In this document: piece after piece, positions 26,680 through 59,966 of the stretch | Numbering within the stretch: the first letter of the stretch is position 1 | Layout of the letters: every line of letters begins with the position of its first letter | DNA from: Escherichia coli | Lineage (GTDB): Bacteria > Pseudomonadota > Gammaproteobacteria > Enterobacterales > Enterobacteriaceae | Length of the DNA: 64,000 bases | Assembly (NCBI RefSeq): GCF_003334255.1 | Contig: NZ_QOWU01000014.1 | Strand: one strand, 5' to 3' | The notes under the pieces: model-generated | Seen by the model: only the letters and a program-made list of their open reading frames with translations | Databases searched by the model: none | What the model was told of the DNA's origin: nothing | Translations under genes and position numbers: made by a program

Positions 26680-27030
26680 AGTAAATAGCTGACTTATGGA
26701 TGTGCTGGGGATTCTATGTATTTAGCTGTGGCTTTACCATTACTTTTCCCGTTTTTGACTTAAATAGCAATTTACCCGCCAATTCTTGCTGAACATCTAT
26801 ACTTTTTTTGTATTTTTATGCGATTCATTGATTTCTGCTGTACGTGCAGGAAGGAATCGCAGAGCAACAGTGAAAGAATATGGTTGCTAATGATTTTATT
26901 TGATTGATTTCTTTATTGAAAATCAACAATGTGCTTAAAAATCATTCGGGTCGGATTGCCGCGAAAGAAGTGATACACTAGCGCGTCAATATCAGTGCGG
27001 TATCAGTATTCAGGTAGCTGTTGAGCCTGG

Positions 27031-27042
27031 GGCGGTAGCGTG
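27031..27042 (+). promoter_or_regulatory. ops element (GGCGGTAGCGTG) within JUMPStart sequence, RfaH recruitment site in the waaQ operon leader
   Basis: Exact 12-mer ggcggtagcgtg read about 50 nt upstream of waaQ start. Confidence 0.8.
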
Positions 27043-50556: not shown

Positions 50557-51030
50557 CTAATCTCTCAATACCGCTCCCGGATACCCCAACTGCCGCCAGG
50601 CTTCATACACCACTACCGACACCGCATTGGACAGATTCATGCTGCGGCTGTCCGGCACCATCGGAATGCGAATTTTTTGTTCAGCGGGCAGGGCATCAAG
50701 AATGCTCGCTGGCAGGCCGCGTGTTTCCGGGCCGAACATCAGATAATCGCCATCCTGATAGCTTACGGCGCTGTGAGCAGGTGTACCTTTCGTGGTGAGG
50801 GCGAACAGGCGCTGGGGATTTTCTGCTTCGAGGAACGCGCGATAGTCATGATGACGCGTAACGGCGGTAAACTCGTGATAGTCCAGCCCCGCGCGGCGCA
50901 GGCGCTTATCGTCCCAGGCAAATCCCATCGGTTCGATGATATGCAGACGAAAGCCGGTATTAGCGCAAAGACGGATGATGTTGCCAGTATTTGGCGGAAT
51001 TTCTGGTTCGTAAAGTACGATGTTTAGCAT
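50557..51030 (-). CDS. trmL: tRNA (cytidine/uridine-2'-O)-methyltransferase TrmL
   Basis: 157 aa SpoU-family ORF. Confidence 0.93.
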
Positions 51031-51087
51031 ACTGCCCCCTTAGTGCGGGGGCAGGATAGCAGAAAATTGGTGAGCAGTGCGGCCTTT

Positions 51088-51218
51088 TCCCCTCACCCCG
51101 GCCCTCTCCCCGGAGGGGCGAGGGAGAAAAAAAGAGTGCGGTGTCGTTTCAGAGTGAGGGAGTACATACAGCGCCGAACGGTCCCCTCTCCCTGAGGGAG
51201 AGGGTTAGGGTGAGGGGG
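51088..51218. repeat. pair of GC-rich palindromic repeat units (CCCTCACCC / CCCTCTCCC arms) in trmL-lldD intergenic region
   Basis: cccctcaccccggccctctccccggaggggcgagggag and gtcccctctccctgagggagagggttagggtgaggggg. Confidence 0.6.
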
Positions 51219-51227
51219 CGCAAACGA

Positions 51228-52418
51228 CTATGCCGCATTCCCTTTCGCCATGGGATCCAGTGCCGCAGGCAACTCTTTACCCAGCCCCTGCACCAGCGAA
51301 TCTTGCGTAATTTCGCTGATCGATTTCGCGCCAGTCAGCGTCATCGCCACTTTCATCTCTTTTTCGATCAGATTTAGCAGGTTAGCTACACCCGCCTGGC
51401 CCGCTGTTGCCAGCGCATACAAGAAAGCACGACCCAGCAGTACGGTGTCGGCACCGAGCGCAATCATACGCACGACATCAAGCCCGTTACGAATTCCGCT
51501 ATCCGCCAGAATGGCGATATCACCTTTCACCGCATCTGCAATAGCGGGCAACGCACGAGCGGAAGAGAGTACACCGTCCAGCTGGCGGCCACCGTGGTTA
51601 GAAACCACAATTCCATCAGCACCAAAACGTACGGCATCGCGCGCATCTTCCGGATCGAGGATCCCTTTGATCACCATCGGGCCATCCCAGAAATCGCGGA
51701 TCCACTCAAGGTCTTTCCATGAGATAGACGGATCGAAGTTATTCCCCAGCCAGCCGATGTAATCTTCCAGTCCGGTCGGTTTGCCGAGATAAGCTGAGAT
51801 ATTACCTAAATCATGCGGACGACCGTTCAGACCCACATCCCACGCCCATTGCGGATGCGTCACCGCCTGCAAGTAACGGCGCATTGCCGCATTCGGGCCG
51901 CTCATACCTGAATGCGCATCACGGTAGCGTGCGCCCGGTGTCGGCATATCCACGGTGAAAACCAGCGTCGAACAACCCGCTGCTTTTGCTCGCTCCAGCG
52001 CGTTACGCATAAAGCCGCGATCGCGCAGTACATAAAGCTGGAACCACATTGGGCGCTTGATGGCTGGCGCGACTTCTTCAATCGGGCAAACGGAAACCGT
52101 CGAGAGAGTAAACGGAATGCCATGCGCGTCCGCCGCTTTGGCTGCCTGAACTTCGCCACGACGCGCATACATGCCACACAAACCCACCGGTGCCAGTGCT
52201 ACCGGCATCGACAATTTCTCATTAAACAGCGTCGTTTCCAGGCTTAAGTCGGACATGTTTTTCAGAATACGCTGGCGCAGTGCCACTTCTGACAAATCTT
52301 CCACGTTGCGGCGCAGCGTGTATTCAGAATATGCACCACCATCCATATAGTGGAACAGGAACGGCGGCAGAATGCGTTGCGCTGCGGCGCGATAATCGCT
52401 GGCTGCGGAAATAATCAT
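51228..52418 (-). CDS. lldD: L-lactate dehydrogenase (FMN-dependent)
   Basis: 396 aa ORF; overlaps lldR stop (ATGA-type). Confidence 0.97.
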
Positions 52419-57849: not shown

Positions 57850-58048
57850 CCCGAGAGGGCTGGGGTGAGGCTTTTCCCTCACCCAAACCCTCTCCGTGAG
57901 GAGAGGGGCAGCGCCGGATGCGGCGTAAGCGCCTTATCCGGCCTACAAGAACGTGCAAATTCAACAAATTGTGATGCATCCTGTAGGCCTGATAAGCGTA
58001 GCGCATCAGGCAATTAACCCCACCTTCTCCATGTGGAGAGGGTGGGAT
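57850..58048. repeat. BIME/REP cluster in mtlA-mtlD intergenic region
   Basis: Two REP units (gccggatgcggcgtaagcgccttatccggcctaca; gatgcatcctgtaggcctgataagcgtagcgcatcaggc) plus CCCTCACCC/CCCTCTCC palindromes. Confidence 0.75.
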
Positions 58049-58052
58049 TGGA

Positions 58053-59966
58053 TTACTTACGACCTGCCAGCAGTTCCAGCACTTCATCCACGCTGGTGGT
58101 GTGTGCCAGACGCTCGATGACGGACTCATCATCCAGTGCATTGGTCAGGCTGGTGATAACCTGAATGTGCTCGTTGTTACGGGCAGCAATACCAATCACC
58201 AGACGGGCAATGTCATCTTCTTCTTCACCGAAGCGCACGCCTTCCGGGTACTGGCAGAACACGACGCCCGTTTTCAGTACGCGATCTTTCGCTTCAACCG
58301 TACCGTGTGGCACCGCGATAGACTCACCCAGATAAGTCGGGGTCAGTTTTTCACGATCCAGCATCGCCTGAACGTATTCCGGCTCAACGTAACCGCCTTT
58401 CACCAGCTGCTCGCCAGCAAAACGAATCGCTTCTTCTTTGGTTGCCGCTTTGCGACCGAGGAAGATGTTCTCCGCGCCTAGCTTGAACAGGTTAGCACTG
58501 GAATCGTCAAAGCTGTCTTTCAGGCTGTCTTTTACTTTCTCTTCGTTTGCCGTGTGGCGTTGGGCAGCAACCAGACGTTCGGTCAGGCTGGTGTACAGGC
58601 CGCTGTCGAGGAAGTTGGTCAGCGAAATATGCTGTGCCTGCGGAACCTGGCGCATAGCGCGTTCGGTCAGGTCACGGTGAGTGATGACGAGGTCCACATC
58701 TGGCGGCAGGTTGTTGATCGCGCTGTTAGTAACAGAAATCTGCGACAGACCTGCATCCTGAATTTTCTTACGCAGAACGCCTGCGCCCATCGCACTGGAA
58801 CCCATACCGGCGTCACAGGCAACGATGATTTTACGTACGTGGCTCAGGTCGTTAGTCACATCGCCAGCAGACAGCGGAGATGCGCCTTTAGACTCAGCTT
58901 TCATGTCCTGCATACGACGAGTTGCTGCTTCAATATCATCTTCTTCTTTCACTTTGCTGGTTTTCAGCAAAATAGCAGAGACAACGAAGGAGACAGCCAT
59001 CGCCGCACACACACCCGCGATGTTAGCGAAGTAAGCACCTTTTGGTGTCATCGCCAGTACAGCAAGGATAGAACCCGGAGATGCCGGAGAAACCAGACCA
59101 CCGCCCAGGATAGTCAGCGTGAACACGCCAGTCATACCGCCGAGGATGACTGCGAGGATCAGACGCGGATTCATCAGCACATACGGGAAGTAGATTTCGT
59201 GGATACCCCCCAGGAAGTGGATGATTGCCGCACCGCCCGCAGACTGTTTAGCGCTACCACGACCAAAGAACATGTACGCCAGCAGCACGCCCATACCTGG
59301 ACCTGGGTTAGCTTCAATCAGGAAGAAGATTGATTTACCCAGTTCATGGGACTGCTGAATACCCAGCGGCGAGAAGATACCGTGGTTAATGGCGTTGTTG
59401 AGGAACAGGATTTTCGCCGGTTCAACAAAGATAGACGCCAGCGGCAGCATGTCATGGACAACCATGAAGTTAACGCCCGCAGCCAGCATTTTGGACAGGG
59501 CTTCAACAATCGGGCCAATGCCGAGGAATGCCAGAATAGCGAGGATCATCCCGATGATGCCTGCGGAGAAGTTATTCACCAGCATCTCAAAACCGGATTT
59601 GATCTTACCGTCTACCCAGCGGTCGAAGTGCTTAATGCACCAGCCGCCCAGCGGACCTGCAATCATAGAACCGAGGAACATCGGCATGTCTGCGCCGACG
59701 ATAACGCCCATGGTGGTGATGGCACCGACTACGCCGCCACGTTCGCCGCCTACCAGCTTACCACCGGTATAACCGATCAGCAGCGGCAGGAGATAAGTGA
59801 TCATCGGCCCGACCAGCTTCGCCAGCGTCTCGTTCGGTAACCACCCTGTTGGAATAAATAACGCGGTGATGATACCCCACGCGATAAACGCGCCGATATT
59901 TGGCATCACCATGTTGCTGAGGAAACGACCAAAGCTTTGCACTTTGATCTTAATATCGGATGACAT
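58053..59966 (-). CDS. mtlA: PTS mannitol-specific EIICBA
   Basis: 637 aa [30 protein letters not shown]... Confidence 0.97.

Follow-up and report, generated by a model that had tools for sequence, protein, structure and literature searches.

The window, as we call the whole 64,000-nucleotide stretch of Escherichia coli DNA that was analyzed, carries on its minus strand the genes trmL (50557-51030), lldD (51228-52418), mtlD (ending at about 57823), and mtlA (58053-59966). The spacer from the lldD stop codon to the trmL start codon is 197 nt long. Within it lie two GC-rich units, inverted copies of a single three-block design, whose 22-nt arms are 86% complementary and 85 nt apart. The sequence-only reading of the window had proposed two inverted units of this kind, and both were confirmed as exact matches to the consensus CCCTCNCCC-N3-6-GGGNGAGGG-N3-GGGNGAGGG, which was published for the repeat called TMECO (Holder et al. 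2015, NAR 43:10126, PMC4666352). The full pattern occurs twice in the window and never in 100 shuffled versions of it (0 expected); its two matches, 51090-51124 on the minus strand and 51184-51216 on the plus strand, show 0 mismatches. The shorter word GGGWGAGGG is found six times where 0.43 occurrences are expected, and all six fall inside the lldD-trmL and mtlA-mtlD spacers. The features of both spacers are collected in Table 1.

Table 1. Repeat features of the lldD-trmL and mtlA-mtlD spacers, in window coordinates.
Feature	Position	Strand	Basis
BoxC/TMECO core, type B, one mismatched triplet	51089..51124	-	exact pattern match, identity to MG1655 no. 18, profile
12-nt tandem direct repeat CCCTCACCCCGG / CCCTCTCCCCGG, within type B unit	51090..51113	+	repeat scan; O111:H8 allele
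59-nt centre between the two cores	51125..51183	.	contains the 5' flank of each unit plus one stray GAGTGAGGGAG block
BoxC/TMECO core, type A, CCCTCTCCCTGAGGGAGAGGGTTAGGGTGAGGGG	51184..51217	+	exact pattern match, identity to MG1655 no. 17, profile
Decayed inverted BoxC pair	57851..57908	-	sequence, mismatch scan, profile E 2.5e-6 for 57869-57907
BIME, two REP units in opposite orientation with spacer	57910..58012	.	inverted-repeat scan; units 57910-57946 and 57979-58012
Local hairpin directly after the mtlA stop codon	58016..58049	.	repeat scan, folding, profile, copy count

Identity of the lldD-trmL pair

The minus-strand unit reads CCCTCGCCCCTCCGGGGAGAGGGCCGGGGTGAGGGG on its own strand and CCCCTCACCCCGGCCCTCTCCCCGGAGGGGCGAGGG on the plus strand, where its blocks are arranged as CCCCTCACCC-CGG-CCCTCTCCCC-GGA-GGGGCGAGGG. 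The plus-strand unit is arranged as CCCTCTCCC-TGA-GGGAGAGGG-TTA-GGGTGAGGGG. The second loop assigns the plus-strand unit (TTA) to type A and the inverted minus-strand unit (CCG) to type B, and an inverted TMECO pair is reported always to contain one unit of each type (Holder et al. 2015, PMC4666352). The same study lists 23 copies for strain MG1655 in its Table 1. Its no. 17 (type A, MG1655 3,781,061-3,781,028) and no. 18 (type B, one mismatch, MG1655 3,781,121-3,781,156), both given again in its supplement for MG1655 and W3110, agree letter for letter with the type A and type B units of the window, and an alignment of the MG1655 lldD-trmL spacer to the window shows no difference across the pair. 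TMECO is the element first named BoxC in the 1990s and renamed PIT by Hoyne et al. in 2000 (Holder et al. 2015, PMC4666352); the earlier sources are the Bachellier/Hofnung surveys of the 1990s and Hoyne et al. 2000 (J Mol Biol 302:797). BoxC also appears among the known repeat families of E. coli in Petrillo et al. 2008 (PMC2267715). In consensus, in A and B loops, and in the inverted pairing of an A with a B, we see no difference from the published family. Comparison with annotated repeat families, which the sequence-only reading had recommended, thus leads to two individual entries in an existing catalogue: judged by sequence, the lldD-trmL units are BoxC/PIT/TMECO elements, and neither copy is new.

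The NC_000913.3 annotation lists no repeat features for the lldD-trmL or the mtlA-mtlD spacer. In searches against Rfam, the BoxC units had no match at the gathering threshold and only chance-level matches at E<=1. Of the whole window, only 27004-27042 on the plus strand reaches that threshold, as a JUMPstart RNA (RF01707; 55.2 bits, E 6e-10).

BoxC copies and subfamilies in E. coli

A 45-nt query around the type A unit has matches in 5389 of 5426 complete E. coli genomes, at about 65,000 places in total, with a median of 14 places per genome and a range from 1 to 27. No annotated feature lies beneath any listed match. The palindrome pattern therefore does recur genome-wide, and the idea of a small dispersed repeat family beyond standard REP, put forward from the window alone, holds. 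The family is much the smaller of the two in published E. coli counts, with 32 BoxC elements against 485 PU-BIME (Petrillo et al. 2008, PMC2267715).

All 23 MG1655 copies were recovered from the Table 1 loci of Holder et al., and every copy is intergenic. In each unit a C-rich block of 9 nt is separated by a short loop from its G-rich complement, and a 3-nt loop leads on to a second G-rich block. The MG1655 copies fall into two subfamilies whose similarity runs past the core on both sides, through flanks of about 10-15 nt that are specific to the subfamily, which makes an element of about 56-65 nt. Upstream, type A units have GCRC-N5-CGGTC and type B units TTTTCT; downstream, type A has GAACAG or GAAAAG, and type B has CATCAGCGCGCAC or a similar string. 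In the window the type B element with its conserved flanks spans approximately 51077-51138, and the conserved 5' flank of the type A unit, AGCGCCGAACGGTC, starts at about 51170. An nhmmer profile built solely from the 21 MG1655 copies at other loci, then run on the window, matched 51077-51130 on the minus strand (E 1.8e-14), 51174-51217 on the plus strand (E 3.4e-11), and 57869-57907 on the minus strand (E 2.5e-6), with no other significant match in the window. Among the five MG1655 pairs, the lldD-trmL pair alone has its third blocks facing outwards, and its centre measures 59 nt versus 16-27 nt.

Two of the 23 MG1655 copies, at 282,101 and 289,246, fall within CP4-6, a cryptic prophage, and this is odd beside the published statement that there is no phage association. 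In our literature search the term TMECO was found in no follow-up paper, and Delihas 2008 does not mention BoxC.

A BoxC remnant and a REP cluster between mtlA and mtlD

The sequence-only reading held that the same arm motifs recur at two places between mtlA and mtlD, interleaved with canonical REP units. One of the two places, 57862-57908, stands as a degenerate copy; the other, 58017..58046, does not, as described below. On the minus strand the degenerate copy reads CCCTCTCC-TCAC-GGAGAGGG-TTT-GGGTGAGGG-AAAAG-CCTCACCCC-CAG-CCCTCTC, that is, one degenerate unit and then the C-rich complement of a partner without its first block. It fails the exact TMECO consensus: its blocks are 8 nt long, with 1 mismatch in one of its two inverted G-G halves and 3 in the other. 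Its form recalls the inverted pairs with partial deletions described as a 'palindrome effect' by Holder et al. 2015 (PMC4666352), and, as far as the supplement of that paper shows, it is not among the listed TMECO copies. An alignment of five diverse alleles shows the remnant unchanged, and it folds (ViennaRNA) into two adjacent hairpins.

REP units are located only at the two positions given in Table 1, next to the remnant, so this part of the sequence-only reading was correct. The 331-nt stretch that contains them matches many places per genome. The number of REP units depends on the mtlA-mtlD allele: none in O157:H7, two in the window, four in N41, and eight in EC444. The spacer is a copy-number hot spot. 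A sub-threshold Rfam match to naRNA4 at 57887-57943 on the minus strand (38 bits against a gathering threshold of 59.5, E 1.6e-5) lies over the REP unit that adjoins the BoxC remnant; because naRNA4 is a REP-derived nucleoid-associated RNA, we read this match as REP similarity.

The two families that stand side by side here share several traits, both being short, GC-rich, intergenic, palindromic, multi-copy, and mostly found at gene 3' ends. Their sequences are unrelated: REP is of the form GCCGGATGCGGCG...CGCCTTATCCGGCCTAC, has no third G block, and is far more numerous, and the REP consensus palindrome (of the type GCCGGATG...CATCCGGC, with a conserved GTAG/CTAC foot) was not found in the BoxC units. 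REP elements have a RAYT transposase and interactions with gyrase, IHF, and Pol I, whereas we know of no RAYT-type transposase and no gyrase, IHF, or Pol I interactions for BoxC. From its sequence, the mtlA-mtlD spacer is best described as a BoxC remnant beside an ordinary REP cluster.

The hairpin that directly follows the mtlA stop codon was considered as a further BoxC member and rejected, since the family profile misses it (no nhmmer match at E<=10) and it has a single copy per genome, occupying one place in every E. coli genome matched. Its arms, CCCCACCTTCTCC / GGAGAGGGTGGG(G), merely resemble the BoxC motif. With the hairpin at 57887-57907 it forms a direct repeat (18/21), and the O157:H7 allele, in which all REPs are lost, is shorter by exactly 135 nt, the distance between these two direct copies. 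Because it is a single-copy direct repeat and the O157:H7 deletion runs between the copies, this hairpin counts as a local duplicate or a partner in recombination and does not belong to the dispersed family.

Allelic variation at lldD-trmL

Among 5421 genomes, just 3531 cover at least 80% of a 501-nt stretch around the lldD-trmL spacer, and about a third fall below that level. The spacer exists in at least five allelic states. The first contains the full BoxC pair. The second, in O111:H8, has a 12-nt deletion that equals the loss of exactly one copy of the tandem repeat in the type B unit. In the third, of E. coli B-type, the centre is replaced by a 35-nt palindrome; the fourth is a near-complete deletion that leaves CCCCTCCCTCCC; and the fifth bears no trace of the pair. 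Both of the low-coverage alleles sampled (strain 4314 and ATCC 11775) are without the BoxC pair. No clean empty site and no target duplication was found at the locus among the alleles aligned. Sequences near TMECO loci are reported to vary more than control sites do (Holder et al. 2015, PMC4666352), and the instability of the lldD-trmL spacer agrees with this published link between TMECO and intergenic variability.

The 35-nt palindrome, CTGTCTCTTGATCAGGAGATCTGATCAAGAGACAG, forms the centre in AS19-RrmA- (L003:310-344), MB53, EC0026B, T43, and NEBExpress. Elsewhere it lies in DNA annotated 'IS4 family transposase', and it has roughly 1000 places on plasmids. Its arms look like the inside end of IS50/Tn5; the palindrome could be the scar of an IS end or a mini-element that sits within the BoxC pair.

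A single-base difference lies in the same neighborhood. At position 51254 the window has T where MG1655 has G, which changes GGGAGCC to GGGATCC, creates a GGATCC site, and converts the tenth lldD codon from the end from GCT (Ala) to GAT (Asp), in the C-terminal tail of LldD. The best match to the 501-nt stretch among 5426 complete genomes is 99.8%; because no genome exceeds this value, the change may be limited to the source strain, or it may be an error.

Folding, termination, and orientation

The folding of the units that the sequence-only reading had called for gives, for each BoxC unit, a hairpin with a free third block (ViennaRNA, which admits only Watson-Crick and GU pairs). The whole lldD-trmL spacer, as RNA, would form a single long composite stem (-87.9 kcal/mol, z -3.8), and the mtlA-mtlD spacer reaches -111 kcal/mol (z -9.2). 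Type A and type B oligonucleotides form a purine-motif intrastrand triplex in vitro according to CD and NMR, and in vivo DMS footprinting did not demonstrate a stable triplex (Holder et al. 2015, PMC4666352).

A role as terminators, one of two functions suggested from the window alone, is not supported. BoxC units do share with intrinsic (Rho-independent) terminators a GC-rich hairpin downstream of genes. They differ in having no 3' U-tract, in occurring in both orientations, and in the absence of terminator activity in published assays. A promoter and terminator scan of 50900-51400 found neither on the relevant strand, and no GC-rich hairpin followed within 0-2 nt by a T-rich run on the transcribed minus strand; type B units have their T-run on the 5' side of the hairpin. 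As summarized by Holder et al. 2015 (PMC4666352), Hoyne and Maher (2002, J Mol Biol 318:373) found that the elements neither acted as promoters or terminators nor affected RNA polymerase.

Gene context gives no fixed orientation. Of 18 BoxC loci in MG1655, 7 are convergent, 9 co-directional, and 2 divergent, and 16 abut a gene 3' end. At the five single-copy co-directional loci the unit is sense in two and antisense in three. For about 250 copies in other genomes and in viral contigs, where genes were taken from a crude ORF caller, sense and antisense stand at 11:14 and 24:22, so that no strand bias relative to genes was seen in either the MG1655 annotation or these crude calls; convergent against divergent contexts in the same copies stand at 13:2 and 8:3. 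The crude caller placed 71 copies 'inside ORFs', which we take as an artefact in GC-rich DNA.

A separate hairpin, CTGCCCCC-TTAGTGC-GGGGGCAG, lies at 51033-51055, immediately ahead of the start codon of trmL (51030, minus strand). On the mRNA strand its 3' arm overlaps a purine-rich stretch at the position expected for a ribosome-binding site. The six aligned alleles, those without BoxC among them, all have this hairpin unchanged.

Occurrence beyond E. coli

The exact TMECO pattern has been reported from 262 proteobacterial genomes, with no phage association (Holder et al. 2015, PMC4666352). We scanned a collection of species-representative genomes with the same pattern and obtained at least 120 matches, those listed all lying in records titled 'MAG'. 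The pattern has 24 fixed bases, and by our own arithmetic chance would give at most a few matches in the whole collection even at 70% GC. Alpha-, beta-, and gammaproteobacteria are all represented among the listed matches of the 24-base core, and the proteobacterial multi-copy matches among them come from Hydrogenophaga, Burkholderiaceae, Ottowia, Azonexus, Hyphomicrobiaceae, Pelagibius, Competibacteraceae, and Sedimenticola. Also among those listed are MAGs labeled Anaerolineales (Chloroflexota, more than 30 copies), Dehalococcoidia, Planctomycetota, Melainabacteria, and Moraniibacteriota. In IMG/VR the exact pattern has at least 120 matches on more than 100 contigs, predicted to be viral, several of which contain 2-7 copies. 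The flanks of the core are conserved within a genome and differ between genomes.

The Anaerolineales MAG JAUXWL01 (L069:2520-2760, L070, L082, L095) contains a high-copy element of about 190 nt with a BoxC-like core, often at contig ends. This element has terminal inverted repeats, GGGTCTGTAAA / TTTACGAACCC, with TAA/TTA/TAG-like flanks, and from its sequence looks like a MITE. Other copies in JAUXWL01 share only an upstream CCCTCAYCCCC block and a second hairpin; an outer stem closes the two hairpins, which is the layout of the lldD-trmL pair. The spread of the core beyond its published range is a modest extension, drawn from MAG labels and viral predictions.

Discussion

We consider it very probable that the window contains an inverted BoxC A+B pair between lldD and trmL and a decayed pair between mtlA and mtlD, and that these are structure-prone, non-coding repeat DNA with no dedicated regulatory role. 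The family identity of the units, their multi-copy intergenic distribution, the allelic instability of the lldD-trmL spacer, and the lack of terminator features are direct observations. We infer that hairpin or triplex formation together with microhomology causes the instability, and that at lldD-trmL the units serve no selected function. In the mechanism we propose, the C block and the first G block of a unit would pair into a hairpin, or, for paired units, into a cruciform. When the strand is single and isolated, the second G block would lie on this hairpin as a purine-motif intrastrand triplex, as published in vitro. The repeated blocks would supply microhomology and make the spacers hot spots of replication slippage and deletion, with slippage and template switching promoted by the hairpins, by possible transient single-strand triplexes, and by the many short direct repeats. 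The expected outcome would be presence/absence and partial-deletion alleles such as those at lldD-trmL, and a family that varies from 1 to 27 places per genome.

Several observations stand against this explanation. Because the in vivo DMS footprint gave no stable triplex, the triplex step may never take place in cells. The invariance of the mtl remnant in five alleles exceeds a purely neutral expectation. The placement at gene 3' ends could reflect either a role at the RNA level or mere tolerance of insertions. The same 24 fixed bases across phyla hint at a constraint beyond 'junk'.

The alternative that survives best concerns origin and is compatible with the preferred explanation: the units, or the A+B pair, would be non-autonomous miniature mobile elements moved by a transposase acting in trans, now seen as old and decaying insertions. 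We regard this as rather unlikely. BoxC resembles MITEs in being small, non-coding, multi-copy, and polymorphic for presence and absence, and its inverted pair resembles terminal inverted repeats. The conserved flanks past the core in two subfamilies, the variation between strains from 1 to 27 copies, the presence/absence alleles, the two MG1655 copies in CP4-6, the core on many viral contigs, and the Anaerolineales repeat of about 190 nt, with its terminal inverted repeats and TNA-like flanks, would all fit such an origin. Single E. coli units, however, have neither terminal inverted repeats nor target duplications, none of the pair-lacking alleles at lldD-trmL is a clean empty site, BoxC has no known cognate transposase, and E. 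coli TMECO loci are largely syntenic between strains (Holder et al. 2015, PMC4666352).

The pair might instead act at the RNA level, if the stem in the transcript from the end of lldD (minus strand) blocked 3' exonucleases or caused termination, as REP does in some operons. The stable folds of both spacers, the 16 of 18 MG1655 loci at gene 3' ends, and the excess of convergent over divergent contexts elsewhere would be expected of such an element, but we judge it improbable: the transcribed strand has no hairpin with a T-run, orientation relative to the upstream gene is close to even, both sampled low-coverage alleles do without the pair while about a third of complete genomes fall below 80% coverage, the BoxC units match no Rfam family above chance level even at E<=1, and the published tests, in the account given by Holder et al. 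2015 (PMC4666352) of Hoyne and Maher 2002, found no terminator or promoter activity. Stabilization of mRNA by the BoxC pair, the other function suggested from the window alone, would be a minority possibility.

It is still less probable, indeed very doubtful, that the G-rich blocks or the folded hairpin are a binding site for a host protein, such as a nucleoid, replication, or repair factor, with a function at the level of the chromosome. A core conserved in several phyla within lineage-specific flanks, and a remnant invariant within E. coli, would suit such a site. No protein of this kind is reported in the literature searched, and some E. coli genomes have just one or two copies, so that an essential role is impossible. 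That the motifs are chance GC-rich matches without recurrence can be dismissed, given two full-pattern matches against none expected, some 65,000 places in E. coli, and E-values down to 1.8e-14.

More tentatively, and with the odds against it, the BoxC core may be a cross-phylum module set in lineage-specific flanking repeats, and not an enterobacterial or proteobacterial peculiarity. If this were true, it would mean either repeated horizontal spread, perhaps borne by phages, or convergent selection of the hairpin-plus-G-block fold by a universal process of DNA metabolism.

What was found in the window is the rediscovery of a catalogued repeat family, down to its individual copies, and as such it matters little here. 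For annotation, the lldD-trmL spacer can be marked as an inverted BoxC A/B pair, and the mtlA-mtlD spacer as a BoxC remnant with a BIME. Both spacers are indel hot spots, which is relevant to typing schemes and to alignments that cover the region. The natural allelic series at lldD-trmL is a ready-made test set for the function of BoxC, for its spread, and for its cross-phylum recurrence.
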